DNA of 64,000 nucleotides from an uncultured Acidobacteriota bacterium (GTDB lineage: Bacteria > Acidobacteriota > Thermoanaerobaculia > Gp7-AA8). The notes beneath the pieces were generated by a model that worked only from the letters and a program-made list of their open reading frames with translations, did not search any database and had not been told where the DNA came from. The stretch covers positions 640,001 to 704,000 of the forward strand of contig CAWGHO010000002.1 of assembly GCA_963822445.1 (NCBI GenBank). Direction: 5' to 3'. Position 1 is the stretch's first letter. Every line of letters begins with the position of its first letter. The translations under genes were made by a program, and so were the position numbers. Shown here in pieces: positions 632 to 37,795 of this stretch.

Positions 632-1015
632 CTACTGAAGGCGCTCTGCTCCTTCGATTCGGCCGAGGTTCTTGTCGAACGTGCCGAGCGGTGTGTGGCC
701 GGCCTTGCGCGCGATCTCCAGCACCAGACAATCGGAAAAACCAAGTGCGGGTTTCAACCGATACTGATCGAGCGCTGCAAGGACGACATCAGCGTCCTGT
801 ACCGTGATTGTGGCGTGGTTCAGGAGCATCTCGATCGCCATTGCAATCTGGGCATCCTCGAGACCATAGACCGCACTCAAAACCCAGGACATTTCAGCGA
901 GAACCAGGTGGGAAGCCCATGCTCCACGCTCTACGAATCGTTGCGCGGCGAGAACCTGCTTCTCTTCGTCCCGAATGACGAGACGAACGAGCACGTTCGT
1001 GTCAACGGCCCGCAT
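632..1015 (-). CDS. vapC: PIN-domain toxin, VapC family
   Basis: N-terminal AVDTNVLVR, a conserved E, FSD and TFDK acidic PIN motifs; 127 aa; overlaps the upstream antitoxin. Confidence 0.9.
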   Translation of the reverse strand: MRAVDTNVLVRLVIRDEEKQVLAAQRFVERGAWASHLVLAEMSWVLSAVYGLEDAQIAMAIEMLLNHATITVQDADVVLAALDQYRLKPALGFSDCLVLEIARKAGHTPLGTFDKNLGRIEGAERLQ

Positions 1016-1262
1016 GTTTCCCTTTGATGTGCCGACGAATGCCCTCTTTCAGTTCTTCGAGCTTGTGGGGCCTGGGTGGCTTCGCAAAAAGGGCCCGATG
1101 AATGTCCTCGAATGAAAACCGGCCAGCCTTCCGGACGACCACCCTCTCGCCATCCTCCTCCCACTCCAGAACCGACCCCGGACCAATACCGAGCTTGCGC
1201 CTGATCTCCGCGGGAACCGAGATCTGGCCTTGAGCTGTAACCTTCGATTGGGGATGCGCCAT
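1002..1262 (-). CDS. vapB: AbrB/MazE/SpoVT-family antitoxin
   Basis: SKVTAQGQISVPAEIRRKLGIGPGSVLEW is the AbrB swapped-hairpin signature; directly upstream of the PIN gene. Confidence 0.9.
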   Translation of the reverse strand: MAHPQSKVTAQGQISVPAEIRRKLGIGPGSVLEWEEDGERVVVRKAGRFSFEDIHRALFAKPPRPHKLEELKEGIRRHIKGKHAGR

Positions 1263-1327
1263 GGCTTCATAGTACTACGGTAATGCAACCTCCCCCGGTT
1301 ACAATCCGCGCCCGGAGGAGCTGACCG

Positions 1328-2077
1328 ATGGAATGGTTGTCCAACCCCGAGGCCTGGGTCGCGCTGTTGACGTTGACGTTGCTCGAAGTCGTGCTCGGTC
1401 TCGACAACGTCATCTTCATTTCCATCCTCGCCGGCAAGCTGCGCGTCGAGGAGCAGAAGAAGGCGCGGATGATCGGGCTCGCGGGCGCGATGGTCATGCG
1501 CATCCTCCTGCTGCTGTCGCTGGCCTGGATCATCCGCCTGACCAAGCCCCTCTTCACCGTCCTCGGCAACGACATCTCCGGCCGCGATCTGATTCTCCTC
1601 GGCGGCGGCCTGTTCCTGATGGCCAAGGCCACGCACGAGATTCACGACAAGCTCGAAGGGGATCAAGGGGAAACGGTCAAGAAGGTGATGCCGACGCTGA
1701 CCTCGGTCGTCGTGCAGATCATGCTCCTGGACATCGTCTTCTCCCTCGATTCCGTCATCACCGCCGTCGGCATGGCCAAGGACCTCGGTGTCATGATCAC
1801 CGCGGTCGTCGTCGCCGTGGTGATCATGCTCTTCGCCGCTGGGCCGATCAGCGGATTCGTCGACCGCCATCCCACCGTGAAGATGCTGGCCCTGAGCTTC
1901 CTCCTGCTCATCGGCATGGCCCTCATGGCCGAAGGCCTCGAGTTCCACATCCCGAAGGGCTACGTCTACTTCGCGATGGGCTTCTCGGTGTTCGTGGAGG
2001 TCCTGAACATCCAGTTCCGGCGGAAGTACAAGCCGGTGAAGCTGCACGACTCGTATCACGAGCCCGAAACGAAGTAA
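1328..2077 (+). CDS. TerC family integral membrane protein
   Basis: LEVVLGLDNVIFI and DIVFSLDSVITAVG motifs; multiple transmembrane segments; GGAGGAG RBS. Confidence 0.92.
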   Translation: MEWLSNPEAWVALLTLTLLEVVLGLDNVIFISILAGKLRVEEQKKARMIGLAGAMVMRILLLLSLAWIIRLTKPLFTVLGNDISGRDLILLGGGLFLMAKATHEIHDKLEGDQGETVKKVMPTLTSVVVQIMLLDIVFSLDSVITAVGMAKDLGVMITAVVVAVVIMLFAAGPISGFVDRHPTVKMLALSFLLLIGMALMAEGLEFHIPKGYVYFAMGFSVFVEVLNIQFRRKYKPVKLHDSYHEPETK

Positions 2078-33819: not shown

Positions 33820-35109
33820 TTGGCAGCCGCGGTGAAAAACGTAGCGGTCATCGGCGCGCAGTGGGGCGACGAAGGCAAGGGGAAGATCGTCGATCTTCTC
33901 TGCGAGGATTTCGACGTCGTGGCCCGTTATCAGGGCGGGCACAACGCCGGTCATACCGTCAAATTCGAGGACAAGCACTTCGCCCTCAGGCTGATGCCGT
34001 CCGGCATCGTCCATCCCGGCAAGCTCTGCCTTCTCGGCAACGGCATGGTCATCGATCCCGAGGCCCTGCTCGAGGAGATGACCAACCTCCGGGCGGCCGG
34101 AGTCACGATCGAGGAGAACCTCCTCATCAGCGACTCCGCCCACTGCATCCTCCCGTACCACAAGGCCCTCGACCTCGCTCGCGAGGAGTCCGCCGGCGTG
34201 GCCAAGATCGGCACGACCGGACGGGGAATCGGCCCGGCCTACGAATCGAAAGTCGGCCGCTACGGCATCCGCATCGCCGACCTCCTCGATCCCGAGGTGC
34301 TGCGGCAGAAGATCGAGTTCACCTGCGCCGAGCGCAACGCCGTTCTCGGCAGCGTCTACGGCAAGGAAACGTTCGACGCCAAGAAGCTCTACGACGATTA
34401 CCTGCGCTACGGCGAGATCCTCGAGTCGCGTATCACCAACGGCACGGTCTGGATCAACGAGCAGATCCGCGCGGGCAGGACGATCATGTTCGAAGGCGCG
34501 CAGGGAACGATGCTCGACATCGACCATGGCACCTACCCGTTCGTGACCTCCTCGAACACCGTCGTCGGCGGCGTCTGCACCGGCCTCGGCGTCGCCCCGA
34601 AGCACATCCACAAAGTCATCGGCGTGGCCAAGGCCTACACGACGCGGGTGGGCGGCGGCGCGTTCCCGACCGAGCTCGAGAACCAGCACGGCGAGCATCT
34701 CCGCAAGCGCGGCAACGAGTTCGGCACGGTCACAGGCCGTCCGCGGCGCACGGGCTGGCTTGATCTCGCCGTCCTGCGCACCGCCGCAACGCTCAACGGA
34801 CTCGATGAGATCGCGCTGACCAAGCTGGACGTGCTCGACGAGTTCGACGAGATCCCGATCTGCACCGCGTACAAGGTCCGCGGCAAGACCTGGAACACCT
34901 TCCCCGCGTTCGCTGTGGCGCACGACGACTACCAGCCGGAGTACCGCACGTTCAAAGGATGGAAGTCTTCGACTGCGGGAGTGACGTCGTTCGACGATCT
35001 GCCGCAGGAAGCGAAGGATTACGTTCGCTTCATCGAAGATGAGACGGAGACGCGGGCGGCAATCGTCTCGACGGGGCCGCGGCGCGAAGAAACGATTCTG
35101 CGAGGCTAA
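33820..35109 (+). CDS. purA: Adenylosuccinate synthetase
   Basis: GAQWGDEGKGK, GGHNAGHT, IGTTGRGIGPAY, EGAQG and EFGTVTGRPRR motifs. Confidence 0.98.
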   Translation: MAAAVKNVAVIGAQWGDEGKGKIVDLLCEDFDVVARYQGGHNAGHTVKFEDKHFALRLMPSGIVHPGKLCLLGNGMVIDPEALLEEMTNLRAAGVTIEENLLISDSAHCILPYHKALDLAREESAGVAKIGTTGRGIGPAYESKVGRYGIRIADLLDPEVLRQKIEFTCAERNAVLGSVYGKETFDAKKLYDDYLRYGEILESRITNGTVWINEQIRAGRTIMFEGAQGTMLDIDHGTYPFVTSSNTVVGGVCTGLGVAPKHIHKVIGVAKAYTTRVGGGAFPTELENQHGEHLRKRGNEFGTVTGRPRRTGWLDLAVLRTAATLNGLDEIALTKLDVLDEFDEIPICTAYKVRGKTWNTFPAFAVAHDDYQPEYRTFKGWKSSTAGVTSFDDLPQEAKDYVRFIEDETETRAAIVSTGPRREETILRG

Positions 35110-35315
35110 AGGGAACGACCGGGGCGCCTCCGGCGGGCGGCCACGGGCCGCGGCGTTAGTGTTGGCGTGAACGCGGTTCGCGCAACCGACGCGATTTTGC
35201 CAGAAGGCACAACCAACGCAGCGGCCCGTGGCCGCCCGCCTATAGCTTGTCCGGCCGTCTCTCCGCTTCTCCCTCAGCCCTCAGAGAAGTACCCGTTGGG
35301 TGGCAATCGGGAGAA

Positions 35316-35500
35316 TCGGGTTCAGGCGGCGCGATACTGAGAAGAAGGGTTCGTCCCGCTACGAATTCCGCCCGTGTTCGGATCGACGAATCCCTCCGGA
35401 CTTTCGAGCGGGACGAAGTGCTTTGGCCCGAAACGCATTCTCAGATGCTGTCGGAGCACGACTCGACTATAGGCCTTGCGCGCGGCCAAAGCCAACCCGA
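35316..35500 (+). ncRNA. IS110 bridge RNA (target-binding and donor-binding loops; exact 5'/3' ends unknown)
   Basis: Stem 35350-35365/35403-35417 encloses LTG CCGCCCGT (35368-75) and RTG CCTCCGGAC (35393-401). Stem 35420-35428/35484-35492 encloses LDG CTCAGATGC (35440-48) and RDG CTATAGGC (35467-74). Possible outer stem 35316-22/35494-500. Confidence 0.85.
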
Positions 35501-35512
35501 AGGGAGGGTGTG

Positions 35513-36757
35513 ATGAGCGAGTTCGAGTTTGGGGCGTTGGTGGGACTGGATTGGGGTGACACATCGCACGAGGTGGCTCTTTGGGACGAGCAGCAGCAGA
35601 CGTGCACGAACGAGCGCATCGAGCACACGCCTGCGGCTCTGCGCGCATGGATCGAAGCGCTGCAGGCGCGCTTCGGCGGGGCACCGATCGCCGTGGCCAT
35701 CGAGCAGTCCCGCGGCGCGGTCTTCGACGCGCTCAGCGGCTATCCGTTCGTCACGTTGTATCCGATCAACCCACGCAGTGCAGCCCGGTATCGTGAGGCG
35801 TTTCATCCGAGCCTTTCGAAAGACGATCCGACCGACGCGGCGTCCTTGCTCGACCTGCTCCGTAAGCACCGCAACGAGCTGCGCCCGTTCATCGCCGACG
35901 ACGCTTCTACGCGGCTGCTGCGGCTTCTGACCGAGGATCGGCGGGAGCTCGTCGATCAGAGGACGCAACACGTCCAACGCATGACCGATCGGCTCAAGAC
36001 GTACTACCCGCAGGCGCTCCGGTGGGCCGGCGCGTTGATTACGGCCCAGGCCTGTGACTTCCTCGAACGCTGGCCGACGCTCGAGGCCATCCAAAGGGCT
36101 CGGCCGTCCGCGATACGGAGGTTCTATGCGGGTCATCATCACGCGGCCGCGTGGATCGACCAGAGGCTCGCCGAGATCCGTTCAGAGGTCGCGTTCCACG
36201 ACGACCAGGTCACCACTGACGCTGCCGTGCTGCTGATCGGAAGCGAGGTTGCGCAGATCCGGGCCCTCAACACGAGCATCGCCACGTACGACCAGAAGAT
36301 CTCGGCGGCGTTCGCCGCCCACCAGGACGCGTCGATCTTCGCGAGCTTCCCTGGCGCCGGCCAACAGCTCGCGCCGCGGCTCGCCGCCGCCTTCGGGACC
36401 GATCGCAAGCGCTTCGGCAGCGCCGTCAACGTCGCCACCCGAAGCGGCATCGCCCCGGTTCTCCGCCGGAGCGGCAAAACGGCGGTCGTGCACATGCGCT
36501 GGGCCTGTCCGAAGTTCCTGCGTCAGACGTTCCATGAGTACGCCCGCGTGTCGATCGGTCAGTCCGAATGGGCTCGAGCCTTCTACAAGCAGCAACGCGC
36601 GCGCGGACACAGCCACCACGAGGCTATCCGCACGCTCGCTTACCGCTGGATCCGCGTCCTTTACGCCTGCTGGAACAATCGCACCGTCTACGACGAAGCT
36701 CTCTATCTGCGGCAGCTCGCCACCCGAGGCTCAACCCTCGCCACAGCTGCTCCCTGA
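35513..36757 (+). CDS. IS110-family transposase/recombinase (414 aa)
   Basis: RuvC-like DEDD residues VGLDW, VAIEQ and KDDPTDA; C-terminal FPGAG and SGIAPVLRRSGK with the catalytic Ser; RBS GGGAGG before ATG 35513. Confidence 0.95.
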   Translation: MSEFEFGALVGLDWGDTSHEVALWDEQQQTCTNERIEHTPAALRAWIEALQARFGGAPIAVAIEQSRGAVFDALSGYPFVTLYPINPRSAARYREAFHPSLSKDDPTDAASLLDLLRKHRNELRPFIADDASTRLLRLLTEDRRELVDQRTQHVQRMTDRLKTYYPQALRWAGALITAQACDFLERWPTLEAIQRARPSAIRRFYAGHHHAAAWIDQRLAEIRSEVAFHDDQVTTDAAVLLIGSEVAQIRALNTSIATYDQKISAAFAAHQDASIFASFPGAGQQLAPRLAAAFGTDRKRFGSAVNVATRSGIAPVLRRSGKTAVVHMRWACPKFLRQTFHEYARVSIGQSEWARAFYKQQRARGHSHHEAIRTLAYRWIRVLYACWNNRTVYDEALYLRQLATRGSTLATAAP

Positions 36758-36758
36758 C

Positions 36759-36764
36759 TTGACA
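36759..36764 (+). promoter_or_regulatory. Outward-facing -35 box (TTGACA) in the IS right end; forms a junction promoter on circularisation
   Basis: The circle junction reads TTGACA-GGAAGGCTCAGATGCC (16 nt)-TATAGC, or 18 nt to TAGCTT, upstream of the bridge RNA. Confidence 0.7.
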
Positions 36765-36820
36765 GGAAGGCTCAGATGTCCGGAGGCCCCTCGTCGTTCC
36801 CTTATGCGTCCCGCGAGAAT

Positions 36821-37795
36821 CTACTGCCGCGCGCCGTCCGGCTCGGCAGCGATGCGCAGGTGCGCGACGGTCTCACGCAGCTCGCGCTCGAGCTGATCGT
36901 TGGTGATGCCCTCGCCGAGCTCGATGACGCGCTCGGAAGACCAGCGGCCGTCCTCGTAGATCACGAAGCGGAACGTGCTCTCGGGCGTGTAGAGGATCAC
37001 CCGGCCTTCGCTGATGAGCGCGCGTACCGGTGCGCCGGTGCTCGAAGCGATTTTGGCGTTAGGCAGGCGTTCGCCGCTGCGTCCGACCGGCTTCCAGATG
37101 CGTGCGTTGGGAACGGGCTTCGGCGTGATGCGCACGCGCGTCACAGCCGTCGACGCGTGCGCGCCGAACAGGACGTCGACGCCGTCGCCGCTGCGCGTCA
37201 TGGCCAGCGGGGGGTGCAGGACTTCGAGCATCGGCTCGCGGGACAGCGCCTGAGCGGAGTTCACCGCGGCGAGCGTGTTCAGATCGGAGATGTTCGTCGA
37301 AGCGAGCTGTCCCCGCTCGAACGCAACGAGCGCGTATTCGGCAACCGGGTCGCCGGTCATGCTCCACCAGACGGCGTGCACGAGAATCGAGTCCTCGCCT
37401 TCGACGGAACGGCTCATCACAGCCTGCAGGCCGACTCGTTTCGCGAGGCTCACCGGCGCCACTTCCAGCGGCTCGGACCAGTTCCCGCCCGGATCGAGGC
37501 GCGCCATCAGGATCTGCTCGCCGCTTTCCGAGGTCCTGGTCCAGAGCACGAACAGCGCGGAGGACTTCGCGTCCCACATCAGGGTTGCCTGCGATTCGAA
37601 GGCCTTGTCGCCGGTCGTCGGGACGAGCAGGCGCGTCTTGGTCCGTCCGACGCGCCGCACGATGTTGAGGCGGCCGGTCGCGTTGTCGGCCGTGTAGACG
37701 GCACCGTCCGTACCGAGGACGGGCGCCGTCTCCTCACCGGCCGCGGCGAGCGCGGTCAGGAGGACCAGGGCGAGGATTGCGATGTAGCGCGTCAT
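36821..37795 (-). CDS. Secreted hypothetical protein
   Basis: Signal peptide, beta-rich sequence, 324 aa; starts 5 nt after the TPR gene stop. Confidence 0.7.
   Translation of the reverse strand: MTRYIAILALVLLTALAAAGEETAPVLGTDGAVYTADNATGRLNIVRRVGRTKTRLLVPTTGDKAFESQATLMWDAKSSALFVLWTRTSESGEQILMARLDPGGNWSEPLEVAPVSLAKRVGLQAVMSRSVEGEDSILVHAVWWSMTGDPVAEYALVAFERGQLASTNISDLNTLAAVNSAQALSREPMLEVLHPPLAMTRSGDGVDVLFGAHASTAVTRVRITPKPVPNARIWKPVGRSGERLPNAKIASSTGAPVRALISEGRVILYTPESTFRFVIYEDGRWSSERVIELGEGITNDQLERELRETVAHLRIAAEPDGARQ

Follow-up and report, generated by a model that had tools for sequence, protein, structure and literature searches.

A multi-copy IS110-group element with a predicted left-end bridge RNA and a CC core, inserted in palindromic repeats of an uncultured Acidobacteriota genome

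The window analysed here is a stretch of 64,000 nucleotides (nt) from an uncultured Acidobacteriota bacterium (GTDB lineage Thermoanaerobaculia; Gp7-AA8; assembly GCA_963822445.1, contig CAWGHO010000002.1, positions 640,001 to 704,000), and at 35241-36781 on its + strand lies an insertion sequence (IS) of the IS110 group. Counting a single CC core, the element is 1,541 bp long; a gene for a recombinase of 414 amino acids (aa) separates a long left end of 272 nt (35241-35512) from a right end of only 22 nt (Table 1). Comparative sequence evidence strongly supports the view that a bridge RNA is encoded in the left end, made up of a 5' stem-loop followed by one loop that binds the target and one that binds the donor. 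Our overall reading, to which we give a probability of about 0.9, is that this is an IS110-group element whose RNA would read both the insertion site and the element's own ends, around a shared CC core. A sequence-only reading of this stretch had already proposed a bridge RNA here, with cores placed differently.

We examined the recombinase by sequence and by predicted structure. Pfam identifies DEDD_Tnp_IS110 (PF01548, 1.6e-28) at residues 10-166 and Transposase_20 (PF02371, 1.3e-11) at residues 274-359, and the NCBIfam model NF033542, "IS110 family RNA-guided transposase", matches with 143.2 bits against a cut-off of 140. The layout is a RuvC-like DEDD domain, a long helical linker, and a Tnp domain carrying S320. 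Among 20 homologues of 37-89% identity, D13, E64, D104, D105, D108, and G321 are invariant and S320 is present in at least 90%; judged by order and motif context, this set probably corresponds to D11, E60, D102, D105, and S241 of IS621, as these residues are described in PMC11208158. An AlphaFold2 model built from the 20 homologues reached a pLDDT of 87.0 and a pTM of 0.80, with low confidence in the loop at 318-335 around S320. When this model was compared with the PDB by Foldseek, ranks 1-10 were all chains of IS621 or ISCro4 (E 7e-12 to 1.2e-10), with TM scores of 0.74-0.76 on the target over some 400 aligned columns at 16-18% identity. A sequence search of the PDB, in contrast, finds only matches to the C-terminal domain (ISCro4, 1.8e-5; IS621, 3e-4). 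The proposal of an intact IS110-type recombinase, longer than that of IS621 (328 aa in the PDB), is borne out by the domains, the fold, the conserved DEDD and Ser residues, and the open frame; the roughly 86 extra residues probably lie in the helical region 167-273, judging from the Pfam spacing and the predicted helices.

A longer frame of 485 aa, starting at GTG 35300, was considered as the gene and rejected. It runs in frame through the RNA modules, the alignments of homologues begin at residue 1-8 of the shorter, 414-aa form, and the Shine-Dalgarno-like GGGAGGG precedes ATG 35513. Gene callers could nevertheless pick this over-long start and report a gene at 35300-36757.

The ends of the element are defined by its other copies. 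The genome (6.0 Mb in 3 contigs) contains 14 matches, 9 of them full length (96-100% identity) and 5 fragments, and 4 of the full-length matches are listed with the full score and 100% identity. In all 9 full copies the left junction reads ...G(C/G)CCCG-CC-TATAGC... and the right junction reads ...CTCAGATGT-CC-GGAGGC.... Every insertion of the element in this genome falls within one family of palindromic repeats. The fact that CC is found at both junctions in 9 of 9 copies, and that the flanks plus one CC reproduce the repeat consensus, indicates that insertion is conservative, without target duplication.

Two loci appear to carry rearranged copies. At G000:C3:469299-470838 (L010, L012) there is an apparent internal inversion, where query positions 417-577 match the opposite strand between two collinear parts. 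At G000:C1:940360-941428 (L011), two fragments from the right-hand part of the element, query 849-1540 (-) and 1163-1540 (+), meet at 941051; their internal breakpoints are adjacent and their right ends face outward, which suggests rearrangement between copies.

The genome also supplies uninserted paralogues of the repeat that carries the target. BLAST with the left part of the repeat returned 45 matches, 26 of which reach the repeat end; 6 of these continue into the element and 20 are uninserted. Of the uninserted paralogues, 18 read CCCG-CCGGAGG and 2 are other variants. Only CC is common to both junctions and to the uninserted repeat, and we take it as the core; on this alignment the target reads CCGCCCG-CC-GGAGG and the predicted donor, or circle junction, reads CAGATGT-CC-TATAG.

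These sequences differ from those that had been reconstructed before. The sequence-only reading had arrived at an empty site gCCGCCC-GT-CCGGAGG and a circle junction CTCAGAT-GC-CTATAG, which amounts to a bridge RNA with a GT core in the target, a GC core in the donor, and contiguous guides of 8-9 nt. Strings of that length are present in the loops, exactly where they had been placed (CCGCCCGT at 35368-75, CCTCCGGAC at 35393-401, CTCAGATGC at 35440-48, and CTATAGGC at 35467-74), and IS621 is reported to tolerate GT cores (PMC11208158). The genome does contain GTCCGGAGG and GCCTATAG; they lie where the inserted element meets its flanks, on the right and on the left respectively. The proposed 13-mer GCCCGTCCGGAGG (GCCCG-T-CCGGAGG) occurs 0 times in the 6.0-Mb genome, whereas GCCCGCCGGAGG, which lacks the T, occurs 41 times; none of the 20 uninserted paralogues has the extra T, and the mirror arm of the repeat at 35125-35152 likewise predicts none. 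The junctions of the 9 copies also give a circle junction one base longer than the one proposed. Unequal cores should produce a mismatched heteroduplex that resolves both ways, yet all 9 copies share the same junctions; a heteroduplex resolved at random between a GT target and a GC donor was rejected on account of this single junction pattern together with the empty-site counts. The GT/GC layout would further require a right target of 7 nt, where the homologues and IS621 have 5 nt, a 2-nt core, and a 2-nt handshake, and it would shorten the spacer of the junction promoter described below to 16 nt instead of 17 nt. We regard unequal GT and GC cores as very unlikely, and the shared CC core as the better description of this element.

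The natural target is the 3' arm of the basal stem of the repeat. An uninserted paralogue folds as a long hairpin (-117.5 kcal/mol) whose basal stem takes up the 14 target bases, every one of them paired, and the 5' arm at 35125-35152 is an exact mirror of the left flank, CC, and the right flank. At the left junctions in the genome, the target reads CCGCCCG in 3 of 10 cases and CGGCCCG in 7 of 10, while GGAGG is found at 12 of 12 right junctions. Eight perfect 14-mers are free, as are 32 whose single mismatch lies at position 2; 3 and 7, respectively, are occupied, and each kind of free 14-mer is expected 0.86 times by composition. In round numbers, the genome holds about 40 free and 10-12 occupied copies of the target.

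Several features of the repeat and its surroundings were noted in passing. A perfect free copy of the 14-nt target lies at 35128-35141 on the minus strand, in the other repeat arm, about 100 nt from the inserted element. The family, with units of about 135-140 nt, has at least 26 copies reaching the repeat end in this genome and many matches in two related genomes (G008 and G010), and as a family of this lineage resembling repetitive extragenic palindromes (REP) or miniature inverted-repeat transposable elements (MITE) it may merit a description of its own. Among the words that precede CCGGAGG genome-wide, AGGTAGG occurs 41 times and AGGCAGG 39 times, a hint of a second repeat family sharing CCGGAGG. 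Upstream of the element, the frame at 33820-35109 is one that we take, from its translation, to be adenylosuccinate-synthetase-like. In 20 of 21 related genomes the purA 3' region could be located; in the nine loci read (L014-L022), the repeat was absent downstream of purA.

How the RNA would recognise these sites is best seen against IS621. The account of its guides by Hiraizumi et al. (2024, PMC11208158) has the left target guide (LTG) pairing with positions 1-9, on the bottom strand, and the left donor guide (LDG) with positions 1-8; the right target and right donor guides (RTG, RDG) pair with top-strand positions 8-14. Directly 3' of each of these right-hand guides come two handshake bases, which pair with positions 6-7 of the partner DNA once the top strands have been exchanged. 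A word for each of these roles is found in the left end (Table 1). Past its seven matches, the LTG has U and G at positions 8-9 against the core CC, which is one wobble and one mismatch. The LDG equals the donor over 8 contiguous nt (35440-47), followed by a mismatch at position 7 (C vs T) and a wobble at position 8 (U vs C). Durrant et al. (PMC11208160) describe the core as included in all four guide pairings, whereas here only the RTG and RDG fully pair CC. Apart from this full core pairing by the left-hand guides, every feature by which membership of an IS110-group bridge system can be judged from sequence is found in the element.

Seen in this way, the four guide strings of the sequence-only reading are present where it placed them, but its reconstructed sites were one base off and the ends of its right-hand strings include handshake bases. 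Both CCTCCGGAC (9 nt) and CTATAGGC (8 nt) are guide plus handshake, so that they match the junctions of an inserted copy and not the empty site. This yields a rule for reading such elements: the longest match to a right-hand guide marks the inserted junction, and cores should be called from uninserted sites. The corrected words, CCGCCCG, CCTCCGG, CTCAGATG, and CTATAGG, each occur once in 35241-35512. Mononucleotide shuffling never brought all four together in 20,000 trials; among 22,057 genome tiles of 272 nt, 4 contain the full set, and we assume these to be other copies of the element.

Table 1. Features of the IS110-group element and its insertion site, in window coordinates.
Feature	Positions	Strand	Remarks
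Palindromic repeat (REP/MITE-like), about 135 nt, left part	35104-35238	+	carries the insertion site; right part from 36782 on
Left target (LT), positions 1-7, CCGCCCG	35232-35238	+	abuts left core copy
Core dinucleotide CC, left copy, positions 8-9	35239-35240	+	shared by both junctions and the uninserted repeat
Right donor (RD), TATAG	35241-35245	+	start of left end (35241-35246); doubles as -10 box TATAGC
5' region of predicted bridge RNA	35247-35349	+	long imperfect 5' stem-loop; most inter-copy differences
Target-binding loop module (predicted)	35350-35417	+	stem 35350-60/35407-17, bulged A 35361, stem 35362-65/35403-06, hairpin 35377-90
Left target guide (LTG)	35368-35376	+	CCGCCCG (35368-74) equals LT positions 1-7, 7/7
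Right target guide (RTG), CCUCCGG	35393-35399	+	reverse complement of core and RT (CC-GGAGG), 7/7
Target-loop handshake guide, AC	35400-35401	+	pairs donor positions 6-7 (GT, 36778-79), 2/2; the "GT core" of the sequence-only reading
Donor-binding loop module (predicted)	35421-35491	+	stems 35421-30/35481-91 and 35434-37/35477-80; hairpin 35450-62
Left donor guide (LDG)	35440-35449	+	CUCAGAUG equals donor positions -1 to 6
Right donor guide (RDG), CUAUAGG	35467-35473	+	reverse complement of core and RD (CC-TATAG), 7/7
Donor-loop handshake guide, CC	35474-35475	+	first C pairs target position 7 (G 35238), second unpaired opposite C 35237; 1/2
Shine-Dalgarno-like GGGAGGG	35502-35508	+	4 nt before ATG; read directly from the sequence
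Recombinase gene, 414 aa and stop	35513-36757	+	IS110 family; ATG 35513
Right end, 22 nt	36758-36779	+	-35 box TTGACA 36759-64; left donor (LD) CAGATGT 36773-79
Core dinucleotide CC, right copy	36780-36781	+	from junctions of 9 copies and uninserted repeat paralogues
Right target (RT), positions 10-14, GGAGG	36782-36786	+	followed by the rest of the repeat 3' arm

The guide words are where a bridge RNA would hold them. In the minimum-free-energy fold of 35239-35513 (-113.8 kcal/mol), a long 5' hairpin is followed by two modules, each composed of a stem, a large internal loop, and a small hairpin; the four motifs lie on the 5' and 3' sides of the internal loops, in agreement with the two consecutive modules that had been noted. 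The fold has a z-score of -2.10, and 5 of 200 shuffles fold as well.

To follow this structure beyond one genome we turned to relatives of the recombinase. A scan of one genome per species returned 72 loci encoding them. The three nearest (83-89% identity) are in metagenome-assembled genomes labelled Thermoanaerobaculia, which fits the earlier remark that the lineage is little sampled; others are found in Vicinamibacterales (about 52%) and, at 35-50%, in other Acidobacteriota, Planctomycetota, Gemmatimonadota, and marine Gammaproteobacteria (Colwellia relatives, Algibacillus). At 60 of these 72 loci, a covariance model of the two modules, made from this RNA and those of three close relatives with the structure specified by hand, matches over its full length immediately upstream of the gene. 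In the resulting alignment, which was fitted to the model and so favours the structure, 91.6% of the cells are paired compared with 65.9% in shuffles, 31 of 37 pairs have changed on both sides, and covariation scores 0.546, as compared with 0.154 after shuffling and 0.06-0.09 after sliding the partners. The two helices of the target module are 96.1% and 91.6% paired, with changes on both sides in 14 of 15 and 3 of 4 pairs, and helices 3-5, in the donor module, are 82.8%, 99.4%, and 89.3% paired.

If the loops read DNA, they should change together with the flanks. The 60 loci carry 38 different guide sets. Adding our own element gave 61, of which 29 passed with a gene of at least 380 aa and both ends located by donor-guide matches of at least 6 nt; the ends were located by the donor guides only. 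From these 29 we picked by eye, before computing anything, one element for each target family, 13 in all; the remaining 16 have targets identical or nearly identical to that of one of these representatives. When each LTG and RTG is compared with the flanks of its own element, the longest exact matches sum to 174 over the 13 elements, and 0 of 100,000 permuted pairings scored as high (mean 90.6, standard deviation 9.0, maximum 155). With the core and handshake excluded, the flanks alone give 130 against 80.8, and again 0 of 100,000 permutations scored as high. Single-base changes show the same thing: in the Vicinamibacterales elements L037, L034, and L026, single LTG base differences are mirrored in the flanks. 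L037 moreover has the full IS621 layout with a CC core (LTG 9/9, LDG 8/8, both handshake guides 2/2), which provides independent support for CC as the core. Guide and flank thus covary, as the sequence-only reading had anticipated; that the system may be programmable, as it had also proposed, is suggested by this natural covariation together with the experiments on IS621.

Joining the two ends would also create a promoter. At the junction of right end and left end, TTGACA (36759-64) is separated from TATAGC (35241-46) by a 17-nt spacer that includes one CC. Among 17 elements scanned in silico, taking the best of three spacings and without a shuffle control, 16 have a -35 box with at most 1 mismatch to TTGACA at 16-18 nt from the -10 box (12 of them at 17 nt), and 15 have a -10 box with at most 2 mismatches. 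These boxes agree with the junction promoter described for IS621 in PMC11208160, and transcription would start at about 35252-55. By analogy with IS621, the element would be excised as a circle whose junction, bringing TTGACA and TATAGC together at 17 nt, would drive synthesis of the bridge RNA. A recombinase tetramer would then hold one RNA loop on the target and the other on the circle junction; the top strands would be cut after CC through S320, with the handshake pairs helping the exchange, and the junction would be resolved without duplication.

Several observations weigh against a functional bridge RNA at this locus. Rfam, searched over 34900-37000 at E-values up to 10, returned 5 weak matches, all far below their gathering scores and none to a bridge RNA family, and no RNA run is listed as covering 35100-36900. 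The z-score of the fold, only -2.1, is modest. The LTG and LDG pair more weakly with the bottom core strand than those of IS621 do, and 7 of 10 insertions are at sites with one LTG mismatch. The related purA loci gave no empty allele of the same locus, and paralogous repeats were used instead; neither a circle junction nor an empty site was found in the contigs of four metagenome runs, where the pieces of 87-445 nt contained no joints. In the covariation test, 8 of 26 cognate scores were not above the best non-cognate score, in 7 of 13 representatives (L066, L039, L062, L056, L051, L053, and L042). We attribute these low scores partly to boundary and register calls and to wobble pairs; the end call of at least L051 is off by one in register, and several guides use G-T wobbles. 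The model-fitted alignment and the choice among promoter spacings, given above with their counts, belong on the same side.

In the Colwellia-type relatives L051, L052, L054, and L064, CT stands before TATAG at the left junction, but at the right junction GT occupies the place of the CT that the RTG calls for. The first core base may therefore be unequal at the two junctions, although the end call there is off by one.

Some of these observations would also be expected if the left end were a mere leader or promoter, for example a translational regulator, and its matches to the flanks were a side effect of a GC-rich palindromic target. The target is indeed GC-rich and partly self-complementary (CCGG), and both the modest z-score and the lack of a listed RNA run are compatible with such a leader. 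It would not, however, explain why the four words never came together in shuffled sequence, why guides change with flanks in unrelated hosts, AT-rich as well as GC-rich, or why the stems covary while the loops vary; nor would it explain an architecture and handshake positions that match the solved IS621 complexes. We consider a mere leader highly improbable.

A third possibility accepts the bridge RNA but holds that this copy or lineage is crippled: the mismatches at LTG positions 8-9 and LDG position 7 would make a poor guide, and the copies would be relics. The core-proximal mismatches are real, pairing to both core strands is reported as strongly preferred in IS621 (PMC11208160), and forty free sites are unoccupied, one of them about 100 nt from this copy of the element. 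In contrast, mismatches at LD position 7 are described as tolerated by IS621 in the same paper, and the frame and catalytic residues here are intact. The guide loops are invariant across all 10 left ends of the genome, with most differences between copies in the 5' stem-loop region; because these loops are identical in 10 of 10 left ends and 4 copies are 100% identical, recent spread is suggested, and with it a multi-copy element that was active recently. The mismatches recur, moreover, in multi-copy relatives. Among nine closer elements, the RDG matches 7/7 in 9, the RTG 7/7 in 8, and the target-loop handshake 2/2 in 9; 5 of the nine leave LTG position 9 unpaired, and 6 leave LDG position 7 unpaired. 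The same core-proximal mismatches in relatives point to a habit of the subfamily and are no ground for excluding the element. We consider a crippled relic unlikely.

Its distribution is that of a mobile element. Among 21 related genomes searched, the RNA model matches in 3: 10 times in the genome studied here, once in G009, and 5 times, at lower score, in G003; such patchiness fits mobility. The module in G003, a genome of the same genus, is related but distinct (82 bits, compared with about 187 for the copies described here; for example C1:216334-216475), and its five copies presumably represent another element of the same subfamily.

The closest known systems are IS621, from E. coli, and ISCro4 (IS622), whose structures are available (PDB 8WT6/8WT9 and 9T56). 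Like them, the element has a long RNA-bearing left end, a recombinase, and a very short right end; two RNA modules, each built of a stem that contains a bulged A, an internal loop, and a hairpin; and the same guide geometry, with an LTG to position 9, an LDG to position 8, a 7-nt RTG and RDG that include the 2-nt core, and 2-nt handshakes. The likeness extends to a sigma-70-type promoter rebuilt at the circle junction, a target in a repeated extragenic palindrome, and the protein fold, predicted in our case, with its DEDD and Ser set. Unlike IS621, the element has a protein of 414 rather than 328 aa at 16-18% identity, a core of CC rather than CT, LTG positions 8-9 and LDG position 7 without Watson-Crick pairs, and a 5' region before the target loop of about 100 nt rather than 33 nt. 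The second core base of IS621, T, is described as almost invariant and read by the protein. The IS1111 group shares the recombinase family, with its DEDD and Tnp domains, but carries its seekRNA or bridge RNA in the right end; because the RNA here is in the left end, and the right end has only 22 nt, we assign the element to the IS110 group rather than to IS1111, following the distinction drawn in PMC11208160.

The choice of target has a parallel as well. All insertions of the element fall in one conserved intergenic palindrome, a GC-rich stem-loop, as with elements of the ISPpu10/ISPpu9 type. Tobes and Pareja are said to have described, in 2006, the insertion of IS110 elements of this type into REP stem-loops. 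For ISPpu10, the target stem-loop is reported to act as an extra specificity element (10.64898/2026.03.19.712850). This element may have a structural specificity of the same kind, its target being part of a hairpin stem, although the 14-nt target, unlike that of ISPpu10, lies inside the basal stem of a hairpin-forming repeat of about 140 nt.

As a system, bridge recombination is no longer new. Bridge RNAs were predicted in 85.7% of the IS110 elements of ISfinder, and thousands of insertion sites were reconstructed (PMC11208160); a 2025 preprint reports a screen of 72 orthologues, weak expression and less efficient excision are reported for IS621 (PMC13626964), and single-strand excision and donor-only "half-match" recombination have been described (10.64898/2026.08.31.748434). 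The element is an ordinary member of this recently described kind, which has been heavily mined since 2024 and whose protein family is already named RNA-guided; it or its relatives may already be in the catalogue of reconstructed IS110 elements of Durrant et al. (2024). Its side interests are its distance from IS621, its CC core, and the pattern of core-proximal mismatches.

The value of the element is practical. It is cleanly delimited and multi-copy, with target, donor, CC core, and handshakes defined, and it is far from IS621 in sequence; together with its relatives it makes a small collection of natural cases in which a change of one guide base goes along with a change of target, with possible uses in tool mining and in comparisons of core recognition. 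One broader idea we put forward tentatively, as possible but doubtful: that the subfamily with proteins of about 415 aa, in Acidobacteriota, Planctomycetota, and marine Gammaproteobacteria, recognises its core differently from IS621. The idea comes from the use of both CC and CT cores within the subfamily, and from LTG position 9 and LDG position 7 being habitually unpaired while the handshake guides are fully complementary. If true, a wider range of core sequences would be open to bridge recombination, and these elements would offer a test case from nature for the bias that weak pairing to the bottom core strand, combined with strong handshake pairing, may impose on strand exchange.

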